From the NCBI GenBank assembly GCA_029862125.1, contig JAOTXY010000009.1, forward strand, positions 2,597 through 66,596: a stretch of 64,000 nt of DNA, read 5' to 3'. A model generated the notes under the pieces. That model was not told the DNA's origin. It did no database searches and was given only the letters and a program-made list of their open reading frames with translations. This DNA is from Gammaproteobacteria bacterium (GTDB lineage Bacteria > Pseudomonadota > Gammaproteobacteria > GCA-001735895). Shown here in pieces: positions 11,910 through 60,304 of this stretch; position 1 is the stretch's first letter; each line of letters begins with the position of its first letter. A program made the position numbers and the translations under genes.

Positions 11910-12074
11910 AGGCTTATCTCTGAAAAAGGCGGATTATATCCGCTCCGGGGTACAGGCGTCGATGCAGATTCGATCTTTTAGCATCGCCGGAACCTGATTT
12001 TATCGATTCTAAAGCGCCTTGAATTGCTGCTAAAAAGATTTAAGGCATTCTGACGGTATGCCGATATCTTTATA

Positions 12075-14417
12075 ATGGCTGTTTTTACTCAAACCCGGCC
12101 CAACCCCACGACCTGGCTCAGGAAACTGAGGCAGATGCTGCGCTTTCGCCTCGCGCGTAAATTGTTCCTGGTCGTTTTTGCGGCCATAGTGGTGATCGAG
12201 TTTATTATTGTTTTTCCGTCGTACGGCAATTACGAGTCGTCATTGTTGGCGAATTATCGAGAGGTCGCCCGCGTCGCCGCTTCTGCGGCACTTACCCACC
12301 ATTCTCATGAGAGCATGGCGATCGCTTCAGATCTTGAAAACCTGATTGCCGCCGATCCGCGCCTAGTAGGTGCAAGTGCATTCGATGCCAGTGGAAACTC
12401 GATCGCTAGCGCGGGCGAAACCGTAGAGTTCATACCTGATGAAGAGCAGCGTATGCATGCCGACCTATCGGGTCATGCACCACGTTACGAGCTTTATTTT
12501 TCATCCACGGAACTAGGGATCGAGACCGATTTGATCTTGCGCATGAATGCCGTCCCGATCAAGAAGGATTTGAACCGATTCTTGTTTCGGATTCTTGGAC
12601 TTACCCTGATTATCTGCGCGGTCGCCGGTTCCATCGTGTTTATCTATGTTGTATTTAACCTGATATATCCGCTCGAAGAAATTCATGAAAGCCTGAAGCA
12701 GGCGAAACTCGACCCGGTACGCGCTGACGAAAACAATATTCGTCATGCACGCAAGGATGAGCTTGGCGCAACCATCGATCTGCTTAACGATGCGTTGCGA
12801 GAAATCGGTGAAAGCCATCGTTCCGATGTGGCATTTCAGGAACAGCGCCTGCATGACTTTGCCGAGTCAGGTTCCGACTGGTTTTGGGAGATGGACGAAA
12901 ATCTTTGTTTCACCTACTTTTCCGAAAGCTTTGAAGCGGTATCGGGAGTATCTCCGCAAAAACTACTGGGAAAAACGCGTGCCGAATCCGGTATACCGAA
13001 TATGCCGGTGAAAGCATTTAATGAGCATCTAAGCACACTTGAAAATCGGGAGCCATTTAGGAGTTTCATTCATCCCCGTGACAAGGATGACGGCACCAGG
13101 GTATGGCTCTCGATTAGCGGTAAGCCAGTGTTCGATGCCGATGGACGATTTCTCGGTTATCGCGGATCTGGATCCGACATCACAGTGTTGTACGAGGCTC
13201 AGCAGGAACTGGTCGAGGCCAAGGAAGATGCGGAACAGAGCAACAGGGCAAAATCAGAATTTCTCGCCATCATGAGCCATGAAATCCGCACACCGATGAA
13301 CGGTGTAATCGGGATGACCGATTTGCTGATCGACAGTGGTTTAGACGACAAGCAAAAACAGTACGCCGAGATTATCCAGGATTCAGGTACCGCGCTGCTG
13401 AGAATTATCAACGATATTCTTGACCTGTCCCGCCTCGAAGCAAGACGCATAACCCTTGAACAGGCCGAATTCGAATACTCCAGCGTGGTCACGGGGGTAA
13501 TCGATATTCTGGAACCGCAGGCCAGGGAGAAAGAACTGGTGCTCACCTACGATATCGCTCCCGAGGTACAGGCCGACTACGTTGGTGATTACGGACGATT
13601 GCGCCAGGTCATGGTCAACCTTGTCGGCAATGCAATCAAGTTTACCCAGGAAGGTACTATTTCTATCGAGGTCACACGTGTTGGCGGCGATGATCAAAAG
13701 CCCAGGCTACGTACCGAAATCAACGATACCGGGGCTGGCATTCCAGCTGGCTCGATCGCCAGGTTATTCAAAAGTTTTACCCAGGTCGATGCTTCAACCT
13801 CGCGTAAGTTCGGCGGTACTGGCCTTGGTCTTGCAATTTGTCGCAAGATCATTGAGGCCATGGGTGGTGAAATCGGAGTCTCCAGTACCGAGGGCGAAGG
13901 TAGCCAGTTCTGGTTTGAAATCTCGCTACCATGCGTCGACCCGAACGCTTATGACGAAGATCGTGACGACACCATTACGATTATCCCCGGCCAGCAGTTC
14001 AGGGCCGACAAGACAGGTGCCCAGCTGCGCATTCTGGTGGTAGACGACGTGCCTGTGAACCTGGTCGTGGTCGAGAAAATGCTGGATAGCATTGGATACC
14101 AGGTAGAATCTGTCAGCAACGGATTCGAGGCCGTCGACGCCGTTAAAGCAAAACACTATGACCTGATTTTCATGGATATCCAGATGCCTGAGATGGACGG
14201 CTATGAGGCCACGCGTCAGATTCGCGCGCTCGGTCCAGTCGCCAGTAGCATCCCGATTGTGGCGATTACTGCGAACACCCAGGATGGCGATCGAAAGGCC
14301 TGTATCGCGGCTGGCATGAATGACTATATCGCCAAACCATTTGTTAAAAAGCAACTCGCCAGGTTGCTTAATCTTTACTTTCCCCCCGCAGAACTGGGCG
14401 CCCGTAAAGCCGGTTAA
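12075..14417 (+). CDS. hybrid sensor histidine kinase/response regulator (TM-PAS-HisKA-HATPase-REC)
   Basis: 780 aa. N-terminal TM helices, HisKA H-box [19 protein letters not shown] boxes (VGNAIKFT ... [13 protein letters not shown]), C-terminal receiver [10 protein letters not shown]...[14 protein letters not shown]. Confidence 0.85.
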
Positions 14418-25989: not shown

Positions 25990-26571
25990 ATGTCAGAATA
26001 CCTGTTACTTTTAATTGGCACGGTGTTTGTCAACAACATCGTGCTGGTCAAATTCCTCGGGCTTTGTCCGTTTATGGGTGTCTCACGCAAAGTCGAGACC
26101 GCCATCGGTATGAGCGCGGCAACAACTTTCGTACTGACCCTGTCGGCAATACTGAGTTACCTGATCAATAACTGGATCCTGTCACCGCTGGATCTCGAGT
26201 ACCTGCGCACTATCGCCTTCATTATCGCAATTGCCGCCGTCGTCAATTTCACCGAAATGGTGGTGCACAAAACCAGCCCGCTGCTTTACAACGTGCTTGG
26301 TATTTTTTTACCGCTGATAACCACCAACTGCGCGGTGCTGGGCGTGGCGCTGATTAATGTCCAGGAGCAAAACAGTTTTCTCGAATCAGTAGTCTATGGT
26401 TTCGGAGCCGCGCTCGGCTTCTCATTGGTATTAATCCTGTTCGCAGCCATGCGTGAGCGCATCAATGTCGCCGATGTGCCAGCCCCGTTCAGGGGCTCAG
26501 CGATCGGCCTTGTTACCGCGGGACTGATGTCGCTGGCCTTCATGGGGCTCGGCGGCCTGGTCAAGGTCTAA
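25990..26571 (+). CDS. rnfA: electron transport complex subunit RnfA/RsxA
   Basis: 193 aa polytopic. [32 protein letters not shown] is the conserved RnfA N-terminus. Confidence 0.9.
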
Positions 26572-26574
26572 ACC

Positions 26575-27135
26575 GTGTTTGTCGCAATTTTAACCATCAG
26601 CCTGATGGCTGGAGTATTTGGCCTGGTACTCGGCTACGCGGCGATACGTTTCAAGGTTGAAGGCAATCCGATCGTCGATCAAATCGACGCACTGCTGCCG
26701 CAGACTCAATGCGGACAATGCACCTACGCGGGTTGCCGACCCTATGCCGAGGCCATCGCAAACGGAGAAGCACCCATCAATCAATGCCCCCCGGGTGGAC
26801 AGGCGACAATCGTTGCACTTTCCAACCTGCTCGATACCGAGGTGCTCGACCTCAACGCAGAGCTTGGTGAGCATCTTGAAATTCCTCTGCTGGCGGTGAT
26901 TGACGAGCAAATATGTATTGGTTGCACGCTCTGCATCCAGGCCTGCCCGGTCGACGCCATCCTCGGCGCAGCCAAGCAAATGCACACGGTGATTGCCGAC
27001 GAGTGCACGGGCTGCAAACTCTGCCTGCCCCCCTGTCCGGTCGATTGCATCGACATGGTTCCCACCGAGCAATCCATCGACGACTGGAAATGGCCGGCAC
27101 CGTTAGACCCGCTGGAACTAGTACAGGATGCTTAA
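26575..27135 (+). CDS. rnfB: electron transport complex subunit RnfB/RsxB (Fe-S)
   Basis: [30 protein letters not shown] plus two 4Fe-4S ferredoxin CxxCxxCxxxCP motifs. Confidence 0.9.
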
Positions 27136-28675
27136 GCTACATCATTTTCACGGTGGCCTGCGGCTCGACGGACATAAAGCCAAGTCGCTGCAACGAGGAT
27201 TACTACAGGCAACTTTACCCGAACGCCTGTTCCTGCCGTTAAGGCAACACATCGGTGATCACAATAAGCCCCGGGTCGAGATCGGTGAGCGGGTGCTGAA
27301 GGGCCAGGTAATCGCCTCGGATTCCGCGTTGATTTGCGCCGCAGTACACGCGCCGACCTCGGGTACCATCAGAGCAATAGAAAACTACCCGGTGGCACAC
27401 CCGTCGGGGAAAATCGATACCTGTATCGTCATCGACGTCGATGGCGATGACCAGGGCGTCGAGCCAAACCCGGCAGACCTCGAGAGCCTGGCGCCCATTG
27501 AATTGATCGAGCTGATTTGTCGCGCCGGCATCGTCGGACTCGGCGGTGCGGTTTTTCCGACCTCGCCAAAGTTGTCGCGCGGCAAGGTGCAGGGTATAGA
27601 CACCTTGATCATCAACGGGGTCGAGTGCGAACCCTATATTACCTGCGACGATATCCTGATGCGCTTCAACGCGGCCGAAGTGATTCGTGGCAGCGGCTAC
27701 CTGCAGCGAATCCTGGCACCACGAACCACGTATATCGCAATTGAAGATAACAAGCCGGAAGCTATCGCGGCCATGGCGAAGGCGCTGGCCGAGCATCCTC
27801 TGCCAGACACTGAAATTATTCCGATTCCGACGATTTATCCCTCCGGCGGTGAAAAACAACTGGTCCAGATTCTGACCGGGAAAGAGGTGCCACATGGTCA
27901 GCTGGCGTTTGATATTGGTATTTTCTGCCAAAATGTCGGTACTTGCGCTGCCATCACGCGTGCACTCGAAATGGACGAACCCCTGATCTCCCGCGTGGTC
28001 ACAATTACCGGCGACAATATTGCGCACCCCGGGAACTGGGAGGCTCGACTGGGCACACCGATCAACCACCTGATTGAACTCGCCGGAGGTTATCAGCATG
28101 AAGCCAGTGGGCACCTGGTCATGGGTGGATCGATGATGGGATTTGCGCTTTCCGGTAGCGATGTTCCGATTGTTAAGGCAAGTAACTGCATCATGGTGAT
28201 GCGCGAGGAAACCATTCCGAAATCACCGGGCTACCACGATGAATGTATCCGTTGCAGCAAGTGTGCCGAGGTATGCCCGGCACAATTGTTACCCCAGCAA
28301 CTCTATTGGCATGCGCGTGCCAAAGCCTACGAGCGCACCCGGGAATTTCACCTGTTTGACTGTATTGAATGCGGTTGCTGTTCTACGGTTTGCCCGAGCA
28401 GAATTCCGCTGGTGCAATACTATCGTGCCGCCAAAAGTGAAATTCGCGCGACGCGAAAGGCACAATTCAAGTCCGATCGCGCACGCCTTAGATTCGAGTT
28501 TCGTGAAAAGCGACTGCTGTTGAAAAAACAGCAAGATGAAGAGCGGCGACGGCTGAAACGCGAGGCCCTGCAAAAGAAAAAAGCCGGGGCCGGCAATGGA
28601 AAACCCCAGGCAGACCCGGTCCAGGCCGCACTGGACAGGGTCAAGGCGCGCAAGAAACTGGCGCAGGAAGACTAG
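27128..28675 (+). CDS. rnfC: electron transport complex subunit RnfC/RsxC
   Basis: 515 aa. NADH-binding GGAVFPT, ferredoxin cysteines [12 protein letters not shown] / [12 protein letters not shown], basic repeat tail. Confidence 0.9.
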
Positions 28676-28677
28676 TT

Positions 28678-29700
28678 TTGGCCAACGTCATCGTCTCGTC
28701 GCCCTACGTTGCCCAGGGCAGTACGCTCAAACGCCTGATGATCCAGGTCATCGTTGCCCTGCTGCCCGGCACGATCGCATATGCCTGGTATTTCGGGCCC
28801 GGTGTCATCATTAATATTTGCCTCGCGGTGCTGTTAGCACTGGCGTTCGAGGCAGGCATCCTGAAATTACGCGCCAAACCGGTAATGCCACACCTGACCG
28901 ATTTCAGCGCGGTAGTGGCGGCCTGGTTGTTCGCGTTGTGTCTGCCGATGCACACTCCCTGGTGGCTGGTACTGGTCGGTATCGGTTTCACCATGGTAGC
29001 CGGAAAACATCTGTACGGTGGACTCGGGTTCAACCCTTTCAACCCTGCCATGGTGGGTTACGTGGTCCTGTTAATTTCGTTTCCACGGGAAATGACAACC
29101 TGGTATTTACCGAGCTCGGTGAGCGGTGAAACCCTGAGTCTAAAGGAGGCACTGGCTTACACTTTCGGCGGTGCCGATATTCAGCAGTGGGATGCGCTGA
29201 GTTCGGCAACCCCGCTGGACCAGGTCAAAACCGCTGTTGCACAGGGCATCACCGTCGGCGAGATTCGACTGTCACCGGTATTCGGGGAATATGGCGGCAA
29301 GGGCTGGGAGTGGATAGCCTTCTGGTGGTTCATCGGTGGGCTGTGGCTGCTGGCGTCGCGGACAATCCGATGGCATATTCCGGTTGCATTGCTAAGTGCC
29401 GTACTCGTAATGTCCCTGCTGTTCTACCTGGTCAACCCTGAAACCTACAATTCACCCCTGTTTCACCTGCTCTCGGGCGCAGTCATAATCGGCGCCTTTT
29501 TCATAGCTACCGACCCGGTTACCGCCGCCACCACCGATAGCGGGCGGATTTACTATGGCCTGCTGATCGGCTGTCTGATTTATATCATCCGTGTCTGGGG
29601 TGGTTATCCCGACGGCGTCGCATTCGCCGTGTTGCTAGCGAACATGTGTGTACCACTGATCGACTATTACACGCAGCCACGGGTATATGGCGAAAAATGA
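28678..29700 (+). CDS. rnfD: electron transport complex subunit RnfD/RsxD
   Basis: 340 aa polytopic with the conserved flavin-attachment region. Alternative (TTG) start. Confidence 0.9.
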   Translation: MANVIVSSPYVAQGSTLKRLMIQVIVALLPGTIAYAWYFGPGVIINICLAVLLALAFEAGILKLRAKPVMPHLTDFSAVVAAWLFALCLPMHTPWWLVLVGIGFTMVAGKHLYGGLGFNPFNPAMVGYVVLLISFPREMTTWYLPSSVSGETLSLKEALAYTFGGADIQQWDALSSATPLDQVKTAVAQGITVGEIRLSPVFGEYGGKGWEWIAFWWFIGGLWLLASRTIRWHIPVALLSAVLVMSLLFYLVNPETYNSPLFHLLSGAVIIGAFFIATDPVTAATTDSGRIYYGLLIGCLIYIIRVWGGYPDGVAFAVLLANMCVPLIDYYTQPRVYGEK

Positions 29701-30320
29701 TTACGATCAGCCGGCGGCAGATTCTTATTTCGGGGATATTTCTATGGCTATTCGCAGTCGCCGGCACAACCCTGGTCGCGTTTACGGAGTATAGCTCCCG
29801 GGAAGCAATTATCGAAAACGAGCGCCAGGTATTGTTGCGTAACCTTTATGCGCTGCTACCCAGGGATAAGCTCGATAACGATATTGCGGAGGATATACTG
29901 GAACTGCCTGCCTCTCCCCTGCTTGGCACTGATGCGGCTTCGATCGTCTACCGCGCGCGCCTTGACGGAGATCCTGCCGCGGCAATATTCAATAGCATCG
30001 CGCCCAATGGTTACAACGGCAAGATACATTTACTGGTCGGGGTCTACAGCAACGGCAAGCTGGCAGGGGTACGCGTGGTCAAACATGCTGAAACCCCGGG
30101 ACTGGGTGACGCCGTCGAGATCAGGAAGTCACCATGGATCAAAAGTTTCGACGGTAAATCGCTCACTAATCCAGACCCTTCCGGCTGGCGCGTAAAACGC
30201 GACGGCGGTGAGTTCGACCAGTTTACCGGTGCGACTATCACACCGCGGGCGGTGGTTACGGCAGTGCGCAACACGCTGCTGTACTATCAACAAAACGCTG
30301 ATATGATTTTTAAACAATGA
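29697..30320 (+). CDS. rnfG: electron transport complex subunit RnfG/RsxG
   Basis: ATG at 29697 overlaps the rnfD stop (ATGA). Single N-terminal TM helix and FMN-binding domain pattern ([31 protein letters not shown]). Confidence 0.85.
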
Positions 30321-30991
30321 CGACTTCACGCGAAATTACCCGTGACGGGCTTTGGGGCAACAATGTTGCACTGGTGCAGTTGCTCGGACTTTGTCCGTTG
30401 CTCGCGGTAACCAGTACGGTTGTCAACGGCATAGGTCTCGGCATTGCCACGCTGATCACGCTGGTACTTTCAAACACGATCGTTTCATTGATCCGCGGTT
30501 TCGTGCGCAAGGAAGTCAGGCTACCGGTATTTGTGCTGATCATCGCGTCCGTAGTGACGATAATAGAACTGTCGATGCAAGCCCTGTTTTATGACCTTTA
30601 CCTGGTGCTCGGCATTTTCATTCCGCTTATTGTCACCAATTGTGCAATTATCGGTCGCGCCGAGGGTTTCGCGTCCCGCAACCCGGTCGGACCTGCCGCG
30701 CTCGATGGACTGATGATGGGACTGGGGTTCCTGGTAGTGCTGGCATTGCTTGGGGCGTTGCGCGAAGTTATCGGCTTCGGCACGCTGTTCGCCAACGCTG
30801 AACTGATGTTCGGTGACGGTGCCCAGACGCTGCAAATCCAGTTCAACGAGGACTACCCTGGATTCCTGCTCGCGATTTTACCGCCAGGCGCTTTCTTCGG
30901 CCTGGCGGCCCTGATTGTCGTCAAGAACTGGCTGGATCTGCGGCCACGGGAAAAACAGGAGATTATAGAAGCGGCGCCCGAGACGGTATGA
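30317..30991 (+). CDS. rnfE: electron transport complex subunit RnfE/RsxE
   Basis: 224 aa. [20 protein letters not shown] conserved N-terminus, RnfA paralogue. Confidence 0.9.
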
Positions 30992-42355: not shown

Positions 42356-42943
42356 ATGACCAGAAGCAGGATACAAACCGAACAACGAATCCTCGATGCG
42401 GTGGGTGCAATTTTGCTCGATCAGGGTTACCCCGCGGTTGGTATTAACGCGATTGCGCGCCAGGCTGGTTGCGATAAGGTCTTGATTTACCGTTATTTTG
42501 GCGGTTTTGACGAATTACTGCTGGCATTCGCGGAAACCACCACCCTGTGGTGGGAAGTGGATGAAATTTTAACCGAAACAGCTGCCGAGTGTGCTGAAAT
42601 CGCGCTACCCGATTTCCTGCAACGCTTGCTCAACCGCTATGTCACCGCACTGGAATCACGCCCGATGGCGCTTGAAATTATGGCCTGGGAAATGTCGGAG
42701 CAAAACAACCTGACCAATACGCTGGCGCGTATACGCGGCGAGCGGGGCATGGAGCTAGTGAAACGGATCCGTGCTTTTTATCATCAACCGAACATCGACA
42801 TCGGTGGCGTTCTAGGCGTATTTGGCGCTTCCATAAACTACCTGGTGATTCGAACGCGCAAACAATCGCAGCAATACAAGGTCGAGGAATGGTGGCGACT
42901 GCAACAGACCATAGGCAAGCTGCTGCAGGCATATGCCGACTGA
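42356..42943 (+). CDS. TetR/AcrR-family transcriptional regulator
   Basis: 195 aa. N-terminal HTH ILDAVGAILLDQGYPAVGINAIARQAGCDKVLIYRYFGG. Confidence 0.75.
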   Translation: MTRSRIQTEQRILDAVGAILLDQGYPAVGINAIARQAGCDKVLIYRYFGGFDELLLAFAETTTLWWEVDEILTETAAECAEIALPDFLQRLLNRYVTALESRPMALEIMAWEMSEQNNLTNTLARIRGERGMELVKRIRAFYHQPNIDIGGVLGVFGASINYLVIRTRKQSQQYKVEEWWRLQQTIGKLLQAYAD

Positions 42944-43439
42944 CACCCCGGATGTAATGCGCCTTGCCGACATCGGTGCTACCGGACTCGTCCGGCTATT
43001 GGCAGAATTCGGATTGATATTAGAACACTGTCCCGCTAACCAACCCATTCCGCACAGCTACTGGGGGGAACAGGAAGCCGGCCTGAAATACAATCGCCTG
43101 TACGCCCGCGATGACACCCCGCTGCATTCCATCCTGCACGAGGCCTGCCATTTCATCTGCCTTGACCCTGCACGGCGCGGAGAGCTTGATACCAACGCTG
43201 GTAGCGACGAAGCCGAAGAAAACGCGGTTTGTTACCTGCAAATACTGCTCGCAGACGAGGTCGAAGGATTCGGGCGTGAACGCATGTTCACAGACATGGA
43301 TACCTGGGGATATAGTTTTCGGCTTGGCTCAAGTAGAGCCTGGTTCGAAGATGACGCCGACGATGCAATTCGCTGGCTGATAAGCCACAACCTGTTGGAT
43401 TCTCGACAACTAACCACAAGTCAACTCCGACAAGCATAA
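42933..43439 (+). CDS. hypothetical protein with HExxH-like motif (HEACH)
   Basis: 168 aa, overlapping the TetR stop by 11 bp. ILHEACHFICLDP resembles a zincin-type motif but is non-canonical. No confident family. Confidence 0.45.
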   Translation: MPTDTPDVMRLADIGATGLVRLLAEFGLILEHCPANQPIPHSYWGEQEAGLKYNRLYARDDTPLHSILHEACHFICLDPARRGELDTNAGSDEAEENAVCYLQILLADEVEGFGRERMFTDMDTWGYSFRLGSSRAWFEDDADDAIRWLISHNLLDSRQLTTSQLRQA

Positions 43440-43606
43440 AACGACCCTCAATACGGCTTCAAAAGGAGTCTTATAAACCCGTAATTATCGCAACTTGCGG
43501 CTAAAGATTTAGTCCTGTCGACCGATACCCCTATACGAGCAGAGTCGTAATTCAACTCTAAACTCCAAATTTACACGATCACAGGTTAGCGAGCAGGAGC
43601 AACTGG

Positions 43607-44362
43607 GTGGATATCGCATCAATTGTTGGATTTATACTGGCCTATATCATTATCGCGACAGCGATAAGCCTCGGCGGCCCGTTCGTATTATTTGTCAATG
43701 CACCCTCCCTGTTGATAGTGGTGGGTGGAACCTTCGCAGTTACGCTGATGCGCGTCACCATCGCCAATTTCCTCGGCTCTTTCAAAATTGGTTTGAAAGG
43801 TTTCTTTTATAAGCTCGACCGCCCACAAAACCTGATCGATGAATCGGTCGAGCTCGCCAATATTGCGCGCAAGGAAGGCATCCTGGCACTGGAAGGCCGC
43901 GAAATCGGCAACGGTTTCCTGGAACGCGGTATCAGCCTGTGCATAGACGGTCATGCCCCGGAAGTGGTCAAGGGATTGCTCGCCAAAGATATCAACATGT
44001 CAATCGAACGCCACACCGTTGGCGCCGATATGTTCAAGGCAATGGCAGTCTATGCGCCGGCGATGGGCATGATCGGAACCCTGATCGGCCTGGTACAGAT
44101 GCTGGCAAACATGTCGGACCCCGCTGCAATCGGCCCGGCCATGGCGGTCGCACTATTGACCACCCTATACGGCGCAATAATCGCCAACGCGTTTGCCTCG
44201 CCACTGTCGGAAAAACTAGTCCTGATCAGTGGATACGAAAAACTCAACAAGGACCTGATCCTCGAGTCGATCAATGGTATCCAGGAAGGTACCAATCCTC
44301 GCGTTTTGAAACAGTTACTGAACGCCTACCTCCCGGAAAGCAAGCGCCAGGAAGACGAGTAG
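43607..44362 (+). CDS. motA: flagellar motor stator protein MotA/PomA family
   Basis: 251 aa, four TM helices, conserved plug/cytoplasmic loop (RKEGILALEGRE) and C-terminal TM3-TM4 region GPAMAVALLTTLYGAIIAN. Confidence 0.8.
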   Translation: MDIASIVGFILAYIIIATAISLGGPFVLFVNAPSLLIVVGGTFAVTLMRVTIANFLGSFKIGLKGFFYKLDRPQNLIDESVELANIARKEGILALEGREIGNGFLERGISLCIDGHAPEVVKGLLAKDINMSIERHTVGADMFKAMAVYAPAMGMIGTLIGLVQMLANMSDPAAIGPAMAVALLTTLYGAIIANAFASPLSEKLVLISGYEKLNKDLILESINGIQEGTNPRVLKQLLNAYLPESKRQEDE

Positions 44363-44371
44363 GGCTTTGCG

Positions 44372-45283
44372 ATGAACGAGGAATGCGATTGCCCACCATG
44401 TGAGAAAGGCCTACCCCCCTGGCTTGCTACTTTCGCTGACATGATGGCGCTGTTGATGTGCTTTTTCGTGTTGCTGTTGTCATTCGCGGAAATGGATGTA
44501 CTCAAGTACAAGCAGGTGGCGGGTGCGATGAAGCTTGCCTTCGGTGTGCAGCGTATCGTTAAAGCTACCGAGATTCCGAAAGGTACCAGCGTCATTGCCA
44601 AGCAGTACAGCCCGGGCACACCCACCGAGGTAACGCCGCTCGAAATAATGCGTGAAAAAACCACCGATGATACCAAGACCAATCTCGATTTTAACGATTC
44701 CAAATCACGCAATGATGGCGGCATGGGCGAAGCCGAAGCCGAGGCGATCGCCCAGCAAAAGGCCCAGCGTGAAGCACAGGCAGAGGCCGAGGAGCTGCAG
44801 GACGAGTTGTCCGAGGCTATTGGTGACGGCCTGGTCGAGGTTGAGGCCTATAACGACCGTGTCTTGATACGAATTCGCGAGCGCGGCTCCTTCGGTTCCG
44901 GATTCGCAGAGCTGCAAACGAAATTCCTGCCCATACTGAAGCAGATTGCGGACGTTCTGAATCAGCGTGACGGGCACTTTGTTATCGCCGGGCATACCGA
45001 CGACATCCCCATCGAAACCCGCCGTTTCCGTTCCAACTGGGACCTGTCGGCCGCACGTGCAGCAAGCGTGGTTCATTATTTTATCCAGGAAGGTGATGTT
45101 GATCCCGAGCGCATGGAAATCAGGGCGATGGCAGACAATGAGCCGATTGTACCCAATGACAGTTGGGAGAATCGTGCCAAGAACCGCCGCGTGGAAATCA
45201 GCGTCCTGCATGGTAACCGAATCCCGATTGCAGGGCAGTCGCCCTCGGAAAACGTCGATTACGTTGTGCAGCCGGACGGTTAG
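44372..45283 (+). CDS. motB: flagellar motor stator protein MotB (OmpA-like peptidoglycan-binding C-terminus)
   Basis: 303 aa. N-terminal TM with the essential Asp region WLATFADMMALLMCFFVLL; C-terminal OmpA-like motif (NWDLSAARAASVVHYF...NRRVEI). Confidence 0.8.
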   Translation: MNEECDCPPCEKGLPPWLATFADMMALLMCFFVLLLSFAEMDVLKYKQVAGAMKLAFGVQRIVKATEIPKGTSVIAKQYSPGTPTEVTPLEIMREKTTDDTKTNLDFNDSKSRNDGGMGEAEAEAIAQQKAQREAQAEAEELQDELSEAIGDGLVEVEAYNDRVLIRIRERGSFGSGFAELQTKFLPILKQIADVLNQRDGHFVIAGHTDDIPIETRRFRSNWDLSAARAASVVHYFIQEGDVDPERMEIRAMADNEPIVPNDSWENRAKNRRVEISVLHGNRIPIAGQSPSENVDYVVQPDG

Positions 45284-45291
45284 GACCTAGC

Positions 45292-45861
45292 ATGACTGAC
45301 GAAAGACGACGCTATTTTCGCATCGAAGACGAAGCCCTCGTGGCGTTAGAGCGTATTGACAAGGCAACGATTGAAGATCGTCTCGAAGACTTCTGGACCA
45401 ACGAGCACGAGTTTTCAATACGCAACAACTATAATTTTCAGATTGAACAACATATTGCTGATCGCCACAAAATCGACAGTAAGATGCCGGAACTGGGTCG
45501 TTACCTCGGAGTGCTGGAAGAACAGGTTGATCGTCTCACTGACAAACTCATTGACGATAAAAACGACCAGGCAATGACACAAAAGTCAGTTAACCTCAGC
45601 GCCCAGGGAATTGCTTATTTTGACGACCAGGCCCCCGAGCAGGACGAACTGGTTGAATTGAAATTAAAACTATTGCCCTCCGGATTCAGGCTTGTCATTA
45701 TTGCCAGGGTCGTACTGGTAGAAAAGGATCGCGGCCAGGACCAGGGTAAACATCGTATTTCACTGGATTTCGAAAACCTGCACGAAGCTGACCGCGAAAT
45801 ACTGATCAAGCATATGCATGGCAAACAAATGGAATCATTGAGTAGCACACAGGAAACTTAG
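45292..45861 (+). CDS. PilZ-domain protein (putative c-di-GMP receptor)
   Basis: 189 aa. N-terminal RRRYFRIEDE (RxxxR motif). No second PilZ motif was identified. Immediately downstream of motB. Confidence 0.6.
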   Translation: MTDERRRYFRIEDEALVALERIDKATIEDRLEDFWTNEHEFSIRNNYNFQIEQHIADRHKIDSKMPELGRYLGVLEEQVDRLTDKLIDDKNDQAMTQKSVNLSAQGIAYFDDQAPEQDELVELKLKLLPSGFRLVIIARVVLVEKDRGQDQGKHRISLDFENLHEADREILIKHMHGKQMESLSSTQET

Positions 45862-45867
45862 GCAGAG

Positions 45868-47307
45868 ATGACCGAACAAGCAGCGTCCTCCTGGTTATCC
45901 TCTCATCATGAAATTGTTCCCGCCTTAGAAATCTTTCATCGTCGGGCACTGGAAACGCTCGAAGACCACACTAAAACCGTTCGCGACCTGGCAGATATAA
46001 TCTCGCTCGATCCCGGCATGAGCGTATCGCTGTATCACGAAGTTAACTCCAGGCTGCGCGATAGTGACAAGCATCCAGTGGAATCGGTTCATTCCGCCTT
46101 GAGCCTGCTTAGCGACAGTGCCATTGCCGACCTGGTGATGCAGCACAAGGTTCTTGATCAGACGCATCCGGACGCGCGACGGCGGCAGAGTTACCATCAG
46201 TTGATGAGCCGGACTTTTCACCTGCTGGCACAACTCGAGCGCTTTATTACCTTGCAGGGGATCCACTCTATCTACGAAGTCCGCAGTGCGGCAGTGCTGC
46301 ACAACATCGGTGAATTCTGTGCCTGCCTGTTCGATCACGAACATTACCAGCAGTACCAGGATAAATTCCGTGCGCTGGGAAGTGATGCTAACAGTGCGAA
46401 ACCCGTTTTCGGTTTCGATTTTCATGAACTCGGGCGCCAGTACGCCGCGAAATCCTATTTACCGGCACTGGTAACCGAATCGCTCGACGAGAACATACCA
46501 TCCGGGCGCAAGGCGCGCCTGATTCAACTTGCAGCCGATGTTTCCCACCAGGCTGAAGTAGGCTGGTATCACTCTTCGATGAAAGCAACCGAAGAGGTAT
46601 GTGCGGCTTACCTGAACCAGTCGCTCGACGGATTTCACAAACATTTGCAGGCAGTGGCTATCGAATCTGCACGCAACAGCCCGTTCGACGACGTATTGCC
46701 CGCTGCGACTCGCCTGATTATGCTGCCCGATCGTGAAGCCCCGGTGCAAACGAAACCGGCCATCGTCGACGATCTTGAAGCTGGCGGCCATGAATTCGAA
46801 AACCGCGTTAAGGCCTTGCTGCAAACGGCGCAACCAACCCAGTCACAGCTGCTGGATCTTCTGCTGAATCACTTGCATGACGATTTACACCTGACACGGG
46901 TTGTATTGATGTTGCTGTCAAAGGATAAATCCAGGCTCGGTACCCGCGCCGGCAGAGGGATAGATCAACATTCTCCCATCAAGACACTGGTCATCGATAT
47001 CAGCAAGGAAAGTGTGCTTAAAACACTGCTTGGTAAACCCCAGTCTATATGGATAGAGCCGGACGAATACCAGAAATACGAGGCCGCGCTGCCAGCCAAG
47101 TTCAAGGCCAGCTTCCTGCATGAAAGCTTTTTCCTGATGTCACTATTCATCGGCAACAACCCGGTTGGAATGTTGTTTTGCGATCGTGCGCATGCGGTCA
47201 CCCGGCTCGACAAGGTGACCTACGTGAAATTCAAATCGGCAATCACACTGACCAGCAAGGCGCTGGCCTACCTGTCTAAGCGGAGACGCCCTCCGGCGGC
47301 TCAGTAA
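45868..47307 (+). CDS. HDOD-domain signalling protein
   Basis: 479 aa. N-terminal pattern (LADIISLDPGMSVSLYHEVNS...LSLLSDSAIADLVMQH...HNIGEF) matches the HDOD domain; C-terminal ~200 aa of unknown type. Confidence 0.6.
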   Translation: MTEQAASSWLSSHHEIVPALEIFHRRALETLEDHTKTVRDLADIISLDPGMSVSLYHEVNSRLRDSDKHPVESVHSALSLLSDSAIADLVMQHKVLDQTHPDARRRQSYHQLMSRTFHLLAQLERFITLQGIHSIYEVRSAAVLHNIGEFCACLFDHEHYQQYQDKFRALGSDANSAKPVFGFDFHELGRQYAAKSYLPALVTESLDENIPSGRKARLIQLAADVSHQAEVGWYHSSMKATEEVCAAYLNQSLDGFHKHLQAVAIESARNSPFDDVLPAATRLIMLPDREAPVQTKPAIVDDLEAGGHEFENRVKALLQTAQPTQSQLLDLLLNHLHDDLHLTRVVLMLLSKDKSRLGTRAGRGIDQHSPIKTLVIDISKESVLKTLLGKPQSIWIEPDEYQKYEAALPAKFKASFLHESFFLMSLFIGNNPVGMLFCDRAHAVTRLDKVTYVKFKSAITLTSKALAYLSKRRRPPAAQ

Positions 47308-48205
47308 ACTCCTGGCCCACTGCGACCAGCCAGTCACGCAGACGTTGCGCAGCTTCGGATAGTGGACGAGTTTCGTCCCAGGTAAGATAAAAGGAACCCG
47401 GTGCCGGAATTTCCATCTCGCTGATACGAACCAGTTTGCCGCTTTGAATCAGCGCCCCGACCTGCGAATGCCAGCCCAGCACAATCCCCTGGTTTTCCTC
47501 GGCAGCCTGCAGCGCAACCACGTAATTATTGAAGCGACGAAAGTTCGCCTGTGAACTATCGCAGTCCCACTCTGCCATCCAGGCATCCCAGCCGGTCCAG
47601 GCCGGATCGACGCTATCCAGCTGAAGCAACGGAAACTGCAGTAACTCACGGGGCTGCAACCATTGGTGATCTGCGGCAAATCCGGGACCACAAACCGGGT
47701 AGATACGATCATCAAATAGTTTCACCGCCTGCTCGCCACGCCAGCCGCCATCGCCATAGCGAATTCGTATATCGGCGTTGACGAAGCCGCTGTCGCCCGG
47801 ATTATCCGAAATGGCATGATTCAAATTGATATCACGATACTGCTGCCAGAAGCCACCCAGGCGCGGCATCAACCATAGCGACGCAAAAGCGGTAGTCGCC
47901 GCAATGGTAACGTCCAGGCTTTGTGACCGGCTTCTGAATTCCTGGCATAGCCTGCCAATTTGTTGAAAGCTCGAACTTAAAACCTGGAATAGATCGATTC
48001 CCTCCGCGGTGAGTTCGACACCGCGGTGCAAGCGCTGGAACAATGCGCAATCCAGCTCGTTTTCCAGTGCCTTTACCTGGCGGCTGACTGCACCCAGCGT
48101 AACACCGAGTTCTGCAGCAGCAGCGGTAAAACTGCCTTGCCGGGCACAGGCATCGAAAGTGTTGAGTCCTGTGAGACTGGGAAGTTGGTAATAACGACGT
48201 GCCAT
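47276..48205 (-). CDS. LysR-family transcriptional regulator
   Basis: 309 aa. N-terminal HTH FDACARQGSFTAAAAELGVTLGAVSRQVKALENEL. Divergent from the Rieske oxygenase gene; 3' end overlaps the HDOD gene by 32 bp. Confidence 0.8.
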   Translation of the reverse strand: MARRYYQLPSLTGLNTFDACARQGSFTAAAAELGVTLGAVSRQVKALENELDCALFQRLHRGVELTAEGIDLFQVLSSSFQQIGRLCQEFRSRSQSLDVTIAATTAFASLWLMPRLGGFWQQYRDINLNHAISDNPGDSGFVNADIRIRYGDGGWRGEQAVKLFDDRIYPVCGPGFAADHQWLQPRELLQFPLLQLDSVDPAWTGWDAWMAEWDCDSSQANFRRFNNYVVALQAAEENQGIVLGWHSQVGALIQSGKLVRISEMEIPAPGSFYLTWDETRPLSEAAQRLRDWLVAVGQEFTEPPEGVSA

Positions 48206-48339
48206 AGCAATTACTAGAGTTTACCTTAAGTAAAGCCAAAAGGAAGTTTTTTAATATTGCCAACTCGGTTAATTCAGCGCAATGTTTACCTTTCCGAACT
48301 GCCCAACCAGTATTGGGCTTGATATTGAGGATAATACCT

Positions 48340-49515
48340 ATGAGCCAGACTTCAGCCCCGAGTATCGCCCTGGACGCCATCCTGCAGCCGATCGAAAAGG
48401 CGAATGGATTGCCCAACCAGGCATACACCAGCAACGATTTCCTGGCGCAGGAACGTGACCATGTGCTCGGCAAAAGCTGGGCCGGGCTCTGGTTTGCCAG
48501 CGACCTGCCCAAGAAGGGTTATGTCAAGCCAGTTGAATTCATGGGCCTGCCACTGGTCATCCTGCGCAACAAGCAGGATGAGATCAAGGTATTCCACAAC
48601 GTCTGCAGCCACCGCGGCATGATCCTGGTACACGATGAAATGGAAGTTCAGGGTGCGTTGCGCTGCAAGTACCACTCCTGGTCATACAATCTCGATGGCG
48701 AGCTCAAGGGTACGCCGCATCTCGGCGGGATCGGGCAGCAAAAGTTCGACGGCTTCAATCATTGCGATCACGGGCTGAAACCGGTGCGCTCGACCGTATG
48801 GATGGATGTTGTTTTTATCAATCTCTCCGGAGACGCACCTGATTTCGCCGATTACATCAAACCGCTGACTGAAAAATGGAGCCCCTTTCTTGGCGGTACC
48901 GGCCTCGATCGATTAAGAACCGCGGCCAATGGCAAGGGCATGAAGATCGAGGTGAACTCGAACTGGAAGCTTGCAGTGGAAAATTACTGCGAAAGCTATC
49001 ACCTGCCCTGGATTCACCCCAGTTTGAACACTTACTCCCGGCTTGAAGATCATTATCACATCATGTATGGCGATGACTTCGGTGGGCAAGGCAGCAACGC
49101 CTACCGTCTATACGACCAGGCTGGCACCGCGTTACCGCGCTTCCCCGAGTGGCCCGAGGACAGGCTTGAACAGGCCGAATACGTCTCGTTCTACCCGAAC
49201 GTGTTACTCGGAATCCAGGCCGACCACGCTTTCGCAATGATAATCGAACCCAGGGCCTGTGACCGGTCCGTCGAACACCTGCGCCTGTTCTACGTCGGCG
49301 ACGAAGCGCTTTCCGATGAACATGCAGCAAGCCGCACCGCCACCCTCGAATCCTGGCGCGTGGTATTCAGCGAAGATATCGATGCGGTCGAAGGCATGCA
49401 GCGCGGACGGCAGTCACCGGGTTACGGCGGCGGGGTGTTTTCACCGGTGATGGACAATCCAACCCATCACTTTCACCAATGGGTTGCGCGCAAGTTACAG
49501 TCTGCCCGGGGCTAG
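48340..49515 (+). CDS. Rieske [2Fe-2S] non-haem-iron oxygenase alpha subunit (GbcA/CntA-like ring-hydroxylating oxygenase family)
   Basis: Rieske motif CSHRGMILV...CKYHSWSY and mononuclear-iron region (YHLPWIHP). Start moved to ATG 48340, preceded by GAGG. Confidence 0.8.
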   Translation: MSQTSAPSIALDAILQPIEKANGLPNQAYTSNDFLAQERDHVLGKSWAGLWFASDLPKKGYVKPVEFMGLPLVILRNKQDEIKVFHNVCSHRGMILVHDEMEVQGALRCKYHSWSYNLDGELKGTPHLGGIGQQKFDGFNHCDHGLKPVRSTVWMDVVFINLSGDAPDFADYIKPLTEKWSPFLGGTGLDRLRTAANGKGMKIEVNSNWKLAVENYCESYHLPWIHPSLNTYSRLEDHYHIMYGDDFGGQGSNAYRLYDQAGTALPRFPEWPEDRLEQAEYVSFYPNVLLGIQADHAFAMIIEPRACDRSVEHLRLFYVGDEALSDEHAASRTATLESWRVVFSEDIDAVEGMQRGRQSPGYGGGVFSPVMDNPTHHFHQWVARKLQSARG

Positions 49516-57559: not shown

Positions 57560-58933
57560 TTATCGAATTACGATAAACAACGAACCACCGTTACGATCGA
57601 CTCGAAGCAGGACTGATGTCGTGCTCAGCTTCAATGCAGCTTTTAGCGATTTGATGTCGTATACCTTTCGTTTGTTGGCACCTACTATCACATCACCCTC
57701 ACGTAATCCGCTGTAGGCGGCAGCCGAATTGGGGGCTACCGCAACGACCAGCACCCCTTTGCCATCAGGATTGTTCTCGACGCGCAGCCCTTGTAGAAGC
57801 GGGATTAACTTTTCGACTTGCGCCTGTCGGGATTTAACCTCGCCGACCTTGACTGTCAGCTGCAATGAGTCGCCGTTTCGTAGTATTGTAAGTTGTACTT
57901 TGTCGCCAACTTCCTTGACACCGATTCTACTGCGCAGCTGGGCAGTCGATATGGTCGTTTTACCATCAGCCTCGATGATGATATCACCCAATTTGATTCC
58001 AGCACGGGCAGCAGGAGAGCCTTCAACGACATTGGTCACCAATACCCCGAACTGTCCTTTAGCCAGATCAAAGGCATCCCGAAGCTCGGGGGTTATGTCC
58101 TGGATTCCAACACCAATTTGCCCACGCCTGACTTCGCCATGCTCGATTATCTGTCGCATGCTTACCTTTGCCATGTTTATTGGAATCGCAAACCCAATAC
58201 CAATATTACCCCCCGCAGGCGAGATAATTGCGGTATTGATGCCCACCAGCTCACCCTTTAGATTGACGAGTGCACCCCCAGAGTTACCTGGGTTGATCGA
58301 TGCATCGGTTTGAATAAAATTTTCATATCCCTCGATGCCAAGACCGCTACGCCCGAGTGCACTAACAATGCCGGTGGTTACGGTCTGCCCCAATCCGAAT
58401 GGATTACCGATAGCGACGACGAAATCGCCGACTTCCAGCAGGCTCGAATCAGCAATCCTGGTCTCGGTTAAATCATCGGCATCAATTTCGAGTATCGCGA
58501 TGTCAAGTTCGGGGTCGGTTCCGACTATCTTGGCCTCATAATTCCGGCCGTCGACCAAAGATACGTGCACTTCATCAGCGTTCCTGACAACGTGATAATT
58601 GGTCATCACGATTCCATCACCCGCACTGACAATAACCCCGGAACCAGCACTCTGCTGGCGCTTGCGTGGCACTTGCTGCTCCGGTTGCGATTGATCTGGA
58701 ATATCAAAAAATTTGCGAAAAAAAGGATCATTCAATAATGGGTTGTAGCTGGACTCGCGTGTTGAGTAAGTCGAAATATTAACCACAGCAGGATTGACCT
58801 GCTTGAGCATCGGCGCTAACGAGGGGAAAGGCCTGCCCTGAGCGTCCGTGCCTGGAAGAACAGCCTGTGCCATCTGACAGGTCAGCATGAGCAGTAAAAA
58901 TAAAAATAACGGATGAGTTTGAATTTTTATCAT
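57560..58933 (-). CDS. periplasmic serine endoprotease DegP/DegQ/MucD family (trypsin domain + two PDZ domains)
   Basis: 457 aa. Signal peptide, catalytic triad regions (NYHVV..., DIAILEI, GNSGGALV), two C-terminal PDZ domains. Confidence 0.85.
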   Translation of the reverse strand: MIKIQTHPLFLFLLLMLTCQMAQAVLPGTDAQGRPFPSLAPMLKQVNPAVVNISTYSTRESSYNPLLNDPFFRKFFDIPDQSQPEQQVPRKRQQSAGSGVIVSAGDGIVMTNYHVVRNADEVHVSLVDGRNYEAKIVGTDPELDIAILEIDADDLTETRIADSSLLEVGDFVVAIGNPFGLGQTVTTGIVSALGRSGLGIEGYENFIQTDASINPGNSGGALVNLKGELVGINTAIISPAGGNIGIGFAIPINMAKVSMRQIIEHGEVRRGQIGVGIQDITPELRDAFDLAKGQFGVLVTNVVEGSPAARAGIKLGDIIIEADGKTTISTAQLRSRIGVKEVGDKVQLTILRNGDSLQLTVKVGEVKSRQAQVEKLIPLLQGLRVENNPDGKGVLVVAVAPNSAAAYSGLREGDVIVGANKRKVYDIKSLKAALKLSTTSVLLRVDRNGGSLFIVIR

Positions 58934-59006
58934 TACAATCTCCTATATTTTCAGCAACACCCAAGGGCTGACCAATACAAGGCCAGCCCTGTTCTTCAAT
59001 TATGAT

Positions 59007-59585
59007 CTACGAATTAATTGATATACGTTTTACCTCCTGATTCACGGTTTCACGACGGGGAATTTCAAGTCTCAATACGCCCTTATCAAGGTTAGCCTTG
59101 ATTTCATCAGCTATGGCGTCATCCGGCAGTGCCAGGGTCCGTTGAAATGATCCATAGCTGCGTTCGACACGATAATAATGCTTATCTTTATCTTCACTGC
59201 GCTCCTCCTTCTCCCCCTTAATGAGCAAAACATCATCCTTTAGCTCGAGCGACAGATCGGATTCAGTCAGGCCTGGTACATCGAGGCTGATCTCGTAACA
59301 GTTCGCATCACCCGATACATCAATTTGCGGTCGATAAAAATTTGACAGTCGTGCACCAGGTAAACCCATGGATTCCAGATTTGAAGCCAGCGATGGCATA
59401 CCGAACGACTTGAATGCATCGTCAAACCAGCGATCCATATTACGGTGCAGGCTCATCAGGGAACCTGGGCCCGCCTGTGGCAAGTTTTCAACTTCGCTGC
59501 GGCTAACCGGAATTTGGTTTCCCTTGCCAGCACCATTTTCCTCGTGTTTGAACCAGTTCCAGGGTTTAAGGTTTTCTAAGTTCAT
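59007..59585 (-). CDS. Hsp20/alpha-crystallin family small heat-shock protein
   Basis: 192 aa. Alpha-crystallin domain (DVSGDANCYEISLDVPGLTESDLSLELKDDVLLIKGEK...) and C-terminal I-x-I-like motif. Confidence 0.85.
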   Translation of the reverse strand: MNLENLKPWNWFKHEENGAGKGNQIPVSRSEVENLPQAGPGSLMSLHRNMDRWFDDAFKSFGMPSLASNLESMGLPGARLSNFYRPQIDVSGDANCYEISLDVPGLTESDLSLELKDDVLLIKGEKEERSEDKDKHYYRVERSYGSFQRTLALPDDAIADEIKANLDKGVLRLEIPRRETVNQEVKRISINS

Positions 59586-59652
59586 GTCAGTCTCCTGAAT
59601 AATTGCATATAAATTGGTGCCGCCTCGATAGAACGGCGTTTATCCTCATTTT

Positions 59653-59680
59653 ATTTAAGGTTAAGTAGGCAACTTTCAAG
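59653..59680 (-). promoter_or_regulatory. candidate sigma-32 (RpoH) heat-shock promoter for the hsp20 gene
   Basis: Minus strand reads CTTGAAA-(13 nt)-CCTTAAAT: perfect sigma-32 -35 consensus, partial -10 (CCCCATNT-like), about 65 nt upstream of the hsp20 ATG. Confidence 0.35.
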
Positions 59681-59776
59681 ACAGGGAAATTGACCCAGGT
59701 CAAATTCAAACCATATATCGATCAGTTCCCAAAAGTGGCCGCGTCATACGAGTAAAAATAGCTATTATCTTAATAG

Positions 59777-60304
59777 CTACTTGACGGCGATACAGGTGCA
59801 GGGTGCACGGTTTGCTACCTTGTGCGATACACTGCCAAGGAACAGACCTTTTAAATCGTTTAATCCACGTGAACCCATAATCACGCAGTCAATTTTTTCC
59901 TCATCGATACATTTCAGAATTCTATCGGCGGGATCACCAACTTCGAGACGGGCATCGACATTTTCAATGCCATTTCCCTCTGCAAGGCCTTTTGCTCCGT
60001 CAATGACATGGCGGCCTACCTCGATCAGTAACCGCGGTGATATCCCTGAATCCTGGAAGGCGGAATCCGTAGCCACGGTGATTCTATAGTCCATCGATCT
60101 CAAGCGTTCTATTTCGGTATTGACATGCGGTGCCAGTCCCTCAATTTCAGCAAACTGCTGCAGAGCGTCGATATTTTCAGAACGATGAGGTACGTGCAAT
60201 AGGACAAGCTCCGCATCGTATTTTTTAGCCATATCAATTGCCAGATCGAGTGCTTTGTGTGCATGATCTGAACCGTCGGTGGGACATAGTATCTTGTTAA
60301 ACAT
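59777..60304 (-). CDS. universal stress protein (UspA family)
   Basis: 175 aa. MFNKILCPTDGSDHAHKALDLAIDMAKKYDAELVLLHV ... C-terminal ATP-binding-type motif GSRGLNDLKGLFLGSVSHKV. Confidence 0.8.
   Translation of the reverse strand: MFNKILCPTDGSDHAHKALDLAIDMAKKYDAELVLLHVPHRSENIDALQQFAEIEGLAPHVNTEIERLRSMDYRITVATDSAFQDSGISPRLLIEVGRHVIDGAKGLAEGNGIENVDARLEVGDPADRILKCIDEEKIDCVIMGSRGLNDLKGLFLGSVSHKVANRAPCTCIAVK

Follow-up and report, generated by a model that had tools for sequence, protein, structure and literature searches.

A PilZ protein with an interrupted barrel encoded beside PomAB-type stator genes in a gammaproteobacterial contig

A stretch of 64,000 nucleotides (nt) from a Gammaproteobacteria bacterium (GenBank assembly GCA_029862125.1, contig JAOTXY010000009.1, positions 2,597 to 66,596 of the forward strand), referred to here as the window, encodes a pair of MotA/MotB-like stator proteins followed by a PilZ-domain protein and a protein with an HDOD domain. 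The locus raises the question of what kind of stator the pair forms, and what a PilZ protein, a candidate receptor of cyclic di-GMP (c-di-GMP), does in the same gene block. We regard it as reasonably likely that the four genes form a late-class, σ28-type operon, pomA-pomB-pilZ-hdod/gaf, in which the PilZ protein is the dedicated c-di-GMP receptor of the PomAB stator. Chance does not account for the arrangement, because dozens of independent genomes show this order of genes as well.

Stator genes and promoter motif of the operon

An earlier reading made from the letters alone (the sequence-only reading) had described four co-directional genes in the order MotA, MotB, PilZ and HDOD. The genes are present as described, on the + strand; the Pfam assignments agree, and each of the four proteins, with the lengths given below in amino acids (aa), scores above its Pfam gathering score.

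43607..44362, + strand: pomA-like stator channel subunit (MotA/PomA), 251 aa, GTG start; Pfam MotA_ExbB, NCBIfam PomA
44372..45283, + strand: pomB-like stator subunit, 303 aa; MotB plug, transmembrane (TM) helix with a conserved Asp, OmpA-type peptidoglycan-binding domain
45292..45861, + strand: stator-linked PilZ protein of tPilZ-like architecture, 189 aa; Pfam PilZ
45868..47307, + strand: HDOD-GAF signalling protein, 479 aa; Pfam HDOD, AlphaFold2 (AF2) model, Foldseek

The junctions between these open reading frames (ORFs), taken from the sequence, are 9 nt for pomA-pomB, 8 nt for pomB-pilZ and 6 nt for pilZ-hdod, the last two being exactly the gaps of 8 and 6 bp reported before.

The MotA homologue scores 84 bits with Pfam MotA_ExbB (cutoff 22.9) and 335.4 bits, over residues 1-250 of 251, with the NCBIfam PomA equivalog (NF006527), which is its best model by 135 bits, the next being MotP with 200 bits. 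The MotB homologue comprises the Pfam MotB_plug (61 bits) and OmpA (64 bits) domains and scores 365 bits with NCBIfam NF006508/PRK08944, against a cutoff of 259 and a runner-up, MotD, of 167 bits. A conserved Asp lies within 'TFAD' of its N-terminal TM segment, and the N-terminus (CDCPP...GLPPWLATFADMMALLMCFFVLLLSF) is closely like that of Vibrio PomB, the TM aspartate included. All PilZ-linked stators tested in five other genomes also score best with PomA (347-400 bits, over the cutoff) and PRK08944. Judged by these model scores the pair is a PomAB-type flagellar stator and not a MotCD-like, lateral or defence motor; the label sodium-type is used for it on account of the similarity to the PomA and PomB models.

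The pair could also be read as part of a non-flagellar machine such as a Zorya-type defence system, a gliding motor, a Tol/Exb-like complex or another 5:2 rotary motor, since the MotB homologue has weak matches to the ZorB models of PADLOC. None of these matches exceeds 77 bits, and the shared MotB/OmpA region accounts for them. A Zorya system pairs ZorB with ZorA, a long-tailed homologue of MotA, and the MotA homologue of the window has no PADLOC ZorA match. The PomA and PRK08944 scores, the MotB plug, the conserved σ28-type motif described below and the occurrence of fliK upstream and of fliL-R/flhB downstream in relatives all argue for a flagellar stator, and the non-flagellar reading is effectively refuted.

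Two signals precede pomA.

43502..43528, + strand: motif TAAAGATTTAGTCCTGTCGACCGATAC, resembling a σ28 (FliA)-type promoter; the pomA GTG start follows about 105 nt further 3'
43595..43599, + strand: Shine-Dalgarno AGGAG, 7 nt before the pomA GTG start

The motif TAAAGATTTAGTCCTGTCGACCGATAC resembles the σ28 (FliA) consensus, TAAAGTTT-N11-GCCGATAA, which is an enterobacterial one, and on the strength of this fit the operon is placed in the late flagellar regulon. The pomAB genes of Vibrio are likewise σ28-controlled, as a stand-alone unit of two genes. The pattern TAAAG-N15-CCGATA has its sole exact match in the 64-kb window, both strands considered, at this site, and in 27 related loci there is one exact match per locus, always just 5' of the MotA gene. 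An upstream alignment of 12 loci, with a mean identity of 55%, contains CTAAAGA, CCGATA and the AGGAG ribosome-binding site as invariant islands, and GCAGGAGCAAC and the GTG start are kept in it. No σ54 pattern is found 5' of pomA. A scan of the window for σ70 promoters gave 8 sites (4.9±2.5 expected) and one for terminators gave 11 terminator-like sites (6.9±3.1 expected), none of them convincing at gene boundaries. A σ28-type match with one mismatch is found at 12041-12066 (+), 9 nt before the ORF of a PAS-HisKA-REC hybrid kinase (12075-14417). This match is probably due to chance; at least two matches occur in 15 of 100 shuffles.

The PilZ protein and its HDOD-GAF companion

The third protein of the operon is a stand-alone domain: Pfam identifies PilZ alone (PF07238, 32.4 bits against a gathering score of 22.5), and this match is confined to residues 91-174 of the 189. 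The string RRRYFRIEDE, by which the sequence-only reading had recognised the domain, occupies residues 5-14 and includes the first of the two c-di-GMP motifs.

45307..45321, + strand: codons of the RxxxR c-di-GMP motif (R6-R7-Y-F-R10); R6 in 53/54 and R10 in 53/54 representatives
45358..45576, + strand: codons of an inserted helical hairpin (about residues 23-95, between β1 and β2), from the AF2 secondary structure
45592..45609, + strand: codons of the [D/N]hSxxG c-di-GMP motif (N101-L-S103-A-Q-G106), conserved in representatives

The representatives are 54 members of the family that share 22-59% identity with the window protein, and PF07238 matches every one of them. The second motif, on which the sequence-only reading had staked its proposal of c-di-GMP control, is thus present and also conserved, with N/D at position 101 in 49 of the 54, L/I102 in 52, S103 in 53 and G106 in all. 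Near-invariance of both motifs at such low overall identity argues for purifying selection on the c-di-GMP site, and the protein may be expected to bind the nucleotide.

The barrel itself departs from the canonical form. The RxxxR motif stands at the extreme N-terminus and 90 residues separate R10 from N101, whereas in a canonical, uninterrupted PilZ barrel the motifs are about 20-30 residues apart. The AF2 model (pLDDT 77.6, from 22 sequences) has β1 at residues 11-21, helices at 24-62, 66-84 and 89-94, five further strands and then a C-terminal helix at 165-188 with many His, Lys and Arg residues (DREILIKHMHGKQ). Positions 68, 71/72, 75, 79, 82 and 86 of α3 are hydrophobic in 93-100% of the representatives, and this 4-3-4-3-4 spacing is that of the a/d positions of a predicted coiled-coil heptad. 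When a profile of the 54 members was compared with the PDB, the best sequence relative was the PilZ domain of MotI (YpfA), a clutch of Bacillus subtilis that binds MotA, with an E-value of 1.1e-5. Positions 6-34 of the hidden Markov model align with MotI 97-125 and positions 105-192 with MotI 127-215, and by this alignment about 70 residues are cleanly inserted relative to the canonical PilZ domain.

The tPilZ proteins are marked by a pair of additional long helices that separate β1 from β2 and by a hydrophobic heptad in α3, from which the core of the tetramer is built. Both marks are found in the window protein, the former in its predicted fold. An exhaustive profile search recovered 1436 clusters (at 50% identity) at E <= 1e-3 and 690 at E <= 1e-10; nearly all of the 150 best matches listed are 185-215 aa long and align from end to end.

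The sequence-only reading had likened the protein to YcgR and FlgZ. This holds for the PilZ domain with its c-di-GMP motifs and not for the rest of the architecture: the window protein has no Pfam match to PilZN (YcgR_N) even at E-values up to 10, and its barrel is split by the two-helix insert. The automatic JGI names of eight members of the family (P0410, P0419, P0423, P0425, P0432, P0445, P0449 and P0459) are doubtful, namely 'predicted nuclease with TOPRIM domain', which looks wrong, and 'c-di-GMP-binding flagellar brake protein YcgR', which is imprecise because the PilZN domain is absent. Two paralogues of the family occur in the metagenome-assembled genome (MAG) CALCSG01, one of which (L055) follows PomAB and precedes an HDOD gene while the other (L057) lies elsewhere; if the bin is clean, this runs counter to the rule of a single tPilZ copy per genome.

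A tPilZ-like fold and the tight operonic coupling to pomAB would also suit a PilZ protein that belongs to the stator constitutively, as a structural subunit or a chaperone that stabilises the ring, much like FlgX of Campylobacter jejuni, independent of c-di-GMP and with vestigial motifs. The RxxxR motif and the [D/N]hSxxG motif, almost invariant in the 54 representatives, speak for selection on ligand binding and so against this explanation. The c-di-GMP motifs have been lost from XCC6012 and FlgX; PA2989, by contrast, has retained them and is a c-di-GMP binder (PMC11725899; 10.1101/814665; 10.1101/2020.02.11.943704). A ligand-independent subunit is therefore considered quite improbable, and a receptor of c-di-GMP remains the preferred reading of the protein.

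The fourth protein had been described as a 479-aa HDOD-domain protein. The HDOD domain is confirmed (PF08668, 52 bits against a gathering score of 22.9, residues 22-205), and a C-terminal GAF-like domain had been missed. The AF2 model (pLDDT 85.8) consists of an HDOD part at about residues 1-270, a disordered linker at 286-306 and an α/β domain at 307-472. Foldseek relates the HDOD part to the structures 3P3Q (MmoQ), 3HC1, 3M1T and 1VQR (Cj0248), and residues 307-472, a block with pLDDT mostly of 85-94, to the GAF domains 3OOV, 3CI6, 3EEA and 2W3D (DosS) with TMt of 0.67-0.77. Pfam gives no match, to GAF or to any other family, for residues 205-479 at E-values up to 10; the C-terminal domain is GAF-like by its predicted structure. 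The HD dyad is replaced by H145-N146, both residues being kept in at least 90% of 34 aligned sequences, which fits the non-catalytic nature of HDOD domains.

Linkage across genomes and the proposed mechanism

A scan of the GTDB species representatives for the PilZ family gave 79 loci, in which ORFs were called and searched with the window proteins. Genes for MotA and MotB on the same strand lie directly 5' of pilZ in 67 (strict filter) or 69 (listing) of the 73 loci that are informative in having at least 1.75 kb of 5' sequence, and the linkage extends over PilZ identities of 28-96%. The hosts include uncultured marine Gammaproteobacteria, Chromatiaceae (Thiorhodococcus, Thiocystis), Methylococcales, Methylothermaceae, Sedimenticolaceae and Oleispira; for close relatives of the PilZ protein the source annotation gives uncultured Gammaproteobacteria MAGs. 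Three further contigs are also linked, including that of the cultured Methylohalobius crimeensis, in which pomB and pilZ overlap by 4 nt, and across the orders the two genes overlap or are separated by 0-30 nt. The genes flanking the triad vary, with birA in Methylococcales and radical-SAM genes in others, so that pomA-pomB-pilZ is the conserved unit. The view of the sequence-only reading that stator and c-di-GMP receptor form a self-contained module is borne out by the stator lying 5' of pilZ in 67-69 of 73 loci and by the motifs being kept in 49-54 of 54 representatives. Since the pairing recurs over several orders of Gammaproteobacteria, the stator is probably the direct target of this uncharacterised family of PilZ proteins.

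The HDOD gene is distributed more narrowly. It is found directly 3' of pilZ in 35 of 65 informative loci, in all of which the PilZ identity is at least about 39%; the core triad has thus gained it in particular clades, the closer ones. Other HDOD genes are also seen near members of the family. A Methylococcaceae locus (L076, 4081-5703) has an HDOD-only gene (293 aa, Pfam HDOD 201 bits) directly 5' of pilZ and no MotAB, an independent HDOD-PilZ adjacency in another order. Four loci of Methylococcales/Methylothermaceae (L073, L074, L078 and L090) carry an orthologous HDOD-only gene of about 276 aa on the opposite strand, 3.5-4 kb downstream of the triad; this is probably a matter of lineage synteny (birA-coaX-SPOR-COX15-HDOD) and not of a functional link.

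Two relatives place the triad among core flagellar genes. L056, in the complete MAG OZ246012.1, has the order fliF-G-H-I-J-K, pomA, pomB, pilZ, fliL-M-N...fliP...flhB-flhA, and L092 has pomA-pomB-pilZ-fliL-M-N-O-P-Q-R-flhB. Among the 79 genome loci L056 alone has other flagellar genes beside the triad, L092 having been found outside that scan. For the window, the precomputed Pfam annotation of a near-identical metagenome contig (ENA, ERZ28013244:k141_1277118, 67 kb) was used; the two sequences differ by 24 mismatches in 20.5 kb around the operon and diverge only near the 3' end of the window. No flagellar structural gene, and no lateral flagellar cluster, is annotated there across the whole span of the window, the former in agreement with the sequence-only reading.

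That reading had taken the pair for a second stator, possibly for swarming, and the operon does stand alone in its 64 kb. An accessory pair of this kind, like MotCD or lateral MotAB, would carry its own c-di-GMP brake for swarming or surface motility, the primary stator being encoded elsewhere. The known PilZ genes adjoining stators, those of MotL and FilZ, do belong to secondary lateral systems (PMC8203827, PMC10304486), and FlgZ targets the accessory MotCD, as cited in PMC11725899. The evidence from the present family gives the proposal no support: both subunits are of the PomA/PomB type and not of the MotCD or lateral MotAB type, a σ28-type motif is conserved 5' of pomA, and L056 and L092 have the orthologous triad within their core flagellar cluster. 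In Vibrio, moreover, the primary polar stator is normally encoded by a pomAB operon that stands alone. An accessory stator is thus unlikely here.

The mechanism proposed for the dedicated receptor is as follows. PomA and PomB would make up a stator unit of the PomAB (sodium) type in the flagellar motor, which the 189-aa PilZ protein would serve as its own c-di-GMP receptor. Oligomerisation is probably driven by the two-helix coiled-coil hairpin that parts β1 from β2, as in the tPilZ tetramers XCC6012, PA2989 and FlgX, and a tetramer may be supposed for the window protein as well. The oligomer would dock on the PomA ring from the cytoplasmic side, as suggested by the precedents of FlgX, YcgR/MotI and MotL: FlgX is a tPilZ tetramer beneath each MotA pentamer (PMC11725899), YcgR and MotI act on MotA via their PilZ domains (PMC10140304; as cited in PMC11725899), and MotL, encoded after motB, tunes lateral motors (PMC8203827). 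Binding of c-di-GMP to the PilZ protein would then alter the engagement or the torque of the stator. The HDOD-GAF protein is probably an accessory sensor that adds a second small-molecule or protein signal to the same complex.

Several points weigh against this proposal. Binding to PomA, formation of a tetramer and binding of c-di-GMP are all steps that we infer. The cutoff of the PomA equivalog is 341 bits, and the MotA homologue of the window falls about 6 bits short of it. Adjacency does not prove a target, because FilZ adjoins motAB and yet acts through a CheW homologue (PMC10304486), and pilZ has no adjoining stator in four loci (L057, L076, L077 and L078), the first of these being the second paralogue of CALCSG01, followed by a REC-only gene. 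The HDOD gene is absent from the more distant clades and is therefore not essential to the core module. As to the tPilZ likeness, the window protein has no hit to PF16823, the tPilZ model of Pfam, with E-values up to 10 admitted; the model matches only 1 of the 54 representatives, weakly (E 0.003), and the Oleispira homologue falls below the cutoff with E 0.026. XCC6012 was not recovered by PDB profile searches with the family. The interlocking motif [DENH]x[KR]h[DEN] reads E76-E-Q78-V-D80 in the window protein, with Q in the K/R position. Among the 54 representatives, E/N/D stands at position 76 in 50, K/R at position 78 in 34 and D/E/N at position 80 in 41. Chen et al. advise that this motif should not serve as a tPilZ criterion (PMC11725899). 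Because the matches to PF16823 and XCC6012 are lacking, the insert may be convergent and not homologous to that of tPilZ; homology would rest on the fold, the sequence searches having given no useful match. The protein is accordingly called tPilZ-like in architecture and not a member of the Pfam tPilZ family, PF16823, XCC6012 and Q78 all disagreeing with such membership.

PilZ proteins are not confined to stators as targets, for MapZ acts on CheR and YcgR has been proposed to act on the rotor proteins FliG/FliM. The PilZ and HDOD-GAF proteins of the window might likewise be co-expressed with the stator and act on chemotaxis proteins, on the rotor (FliG/FliM) or on transcription. The case of FilZ with its CheW homologue would be a precedent, as would the HDOD proteins GsmR and SadB, which influence flagellar gene expression (PMC6543031, PMC11004494), and one of the four stator-less loci has an HDOD gene directly 5' and another a REC gene directly 3' of pilZ. 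Set against this, PomAB is the one constant neighbour of pilZ across the orders, among proteins of known structure the nearest in sequence is the PilZ domain of MotI, which binds MotA, and the closest family by fold includes the stator-binding FlgX. We consider another target very unlikely, and the stator itself is retained as the probable target of the PilZ protein.

A bolder form of the same proposal is put forward tentatively, as a possibility that we rate well below the operon model itself. The PilZ family may be a c-di-GMP-responsive counterpart of FlgX, a coiled-coil tetramer that would be a near-stoichiometric cytoplasmic subunit of PomAB-type stators in many Gammaproteobacteria and would make c-di-GMP a direct ligand of the stator, the HDOD-GAF protein having been recruited in one marine clade. 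If this were true, c-di-GMP would be a ligand of the stator complex itself and not of a diffusible brake, and a definite molecular partner would be known for the HDOD domain, which has had none so far.

Most tPilZ-like proteins are without an assigned function in the literature consulted. The link of tPilZ proteins to 5:2 stators in other phyla was stated by Chen et al. to be still a matter for investigation (PMC11725899), and the window with its relatives provides comparative evidence for a link between an interrupted-barrel PilZ protein and a stator outside Campylobacterota. The gene pilZ is the third gene of a pomAB operon in several gammaproteobacterial orders, including the cultured Thiorhodococcus, Thiocystis and Methylohalobius, and these culturable carriers make testable the hypothesis that c-di-GMP control is exerted on the stator itself by a tetrameric PilZ protein. 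A candidate partner is also offered for the poorly understood HDOD domain.

The operon is preceded in the window by a pair of genes that probably form a separate transcription unit.

42356..42943, + strand: TetR-family regulator; Pfam TetR_N
42933..43439, + strand: 168-aa HExxH protein (SILHEACHF), overlapping the TetR-family gene by 11 nt

The HExxH ORF has neither a Pfam nor a PADLOC match. The pair is kept directly 5' of pomA in the closest clade only, and the σ28-type motif sits between it and pomA. On the other side a LysR-family gene (47276-48205, - strand) converges on the HDOD gene with an overlap of the 3' ends of 32 nt and is divergent from a Rieske/ring-hydroxylating oxygenase gene (48313-49515, + strand), an arrangement kept in close relatives. 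A complete rnfABCDGE-type (Rnf/Nqr-family) cluster for an ion-translocating oxidoreductase lies at about 25990-30991, 13 kb 5' of the operon, and may have a bearing on sodium energetics. A DegP-like protease/HSP20/Usp block is present once in the window (57560-60304) and in two tandem copies in the near-identical ENA contig (L088, 12403-19066); no direct repeat was seen at the block in the window, the tandem duplication being confined to the related contig. The GC content of the window drops to 0.45-0.48 from 58 kb onward, near the end where the ENA contig diverges.

Comparison with known systems

FlgX, MotL/FilZ and MotI are the nearest parallels. FlgX likewise stands alone, with a length of about 160-190 aa; a pair of long helices splits its PilZ barrel after β1 and before β2, the protein has a C-terminal helix, and functionally it is tied to a MotA/PomA stator unit. 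FlgX is restricted to Campylobacterota, is encoded in a ubiA-flgX-flgW context, lacks the c-di-GMP motifs and has no detectable sequence similarity to the window family, which has the motifs, a pomAB context and gammaproteobacterial hosts. The tPilZ proteins in general (XCC6012, PDB 3PH1/3RQA; PA2989; PlzB; Lpg1926) share with it a two-helix insert of about 60-70 aa with a heptad in the second helix, more than 90 residues between the c-di-GMP motifs, a stand-alone domain and a basic, His-rich C-terminal helix (10.1101/814665; 10.1101/2020.02.11.943704). PA2989 and tPilZ 'cluster 12' also retain the binding motifs, as the window family does. The differences are the unmatched PF16823 and XCC6012 profiles and the Q of the window protein at the K/R position. 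A stator neighbourhood for tPilZ is not mentioned in the analysis of Galperin and Chou, in the sequence-similarity-network preprint or in the FlgX paper.

YcgR, MotI (YpfA, DgrA) and FlgZ differ in having an N-terminal PilZN (YcgR_N) domain, in lacking the helical insert and in being encoded outside the stator operon; the PilZ domain of MotI is nevertheless the best PDB sequence match to the window family and it binds MotA. MotL of Shewanella putrefaciens and FilZ of Pseudoalteromonas sp. SM9913 resemble the window protein as single-domain PilZ receptors of c-di-GMP that adjoin stator genes and affect motility. MotL is a canonical, uninterrupted PilZ protein of 144 aa, whereas the window protein has 189 aa with an insert, and both MotL and FilZ belong to secondary lateral clusters with proton-type MotAB, whereas the window PilZ is tied to the PomAB type.

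A number of HDOD proteins have motility phenotypes, among them SadB, GsmR, Cj0248 and PFL_0554/PFL_5871 (PMC6543031, PMC11004494). They have in common with the window protein a non-catalytic HD-related domain and a genetic tie to flagellar motility. SadB combines a YbaK-like domain and GsmR a REC domain with HDOD; in the window protein HDOD is followed by a GAF-like domain at the C-terminus, and its gene belongs to a stator operon; no description of an HDOD-GAF protein in that context was found in the literature.

The stator pair itself is like the PomAB of Vibrio and Shewanella in its best NCBIfam models, its lengths, the MotB plug, the TM Asp and the OmpA-type domain. To our knowledge the pomAB operons of Vibrio and Shewanella are not followed by a PilZ gene. 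Full-text searches of the literature brought up no pomAB-pilZ operon like the present one, their coverage being incomplete and the result absence of evidence only. The action of a PilZ protein on a stator, and a PilZ gene placed after motB in lateral systems, are already known. The advance thus lies in a new family and a new linkage and not in a new principle: a FlgX-like architecture occurs together with ligand motifs like those of YcgR, the stators to which it is linked are of the PomAB type, and a novel HDOD-GAF protein accompanies it.

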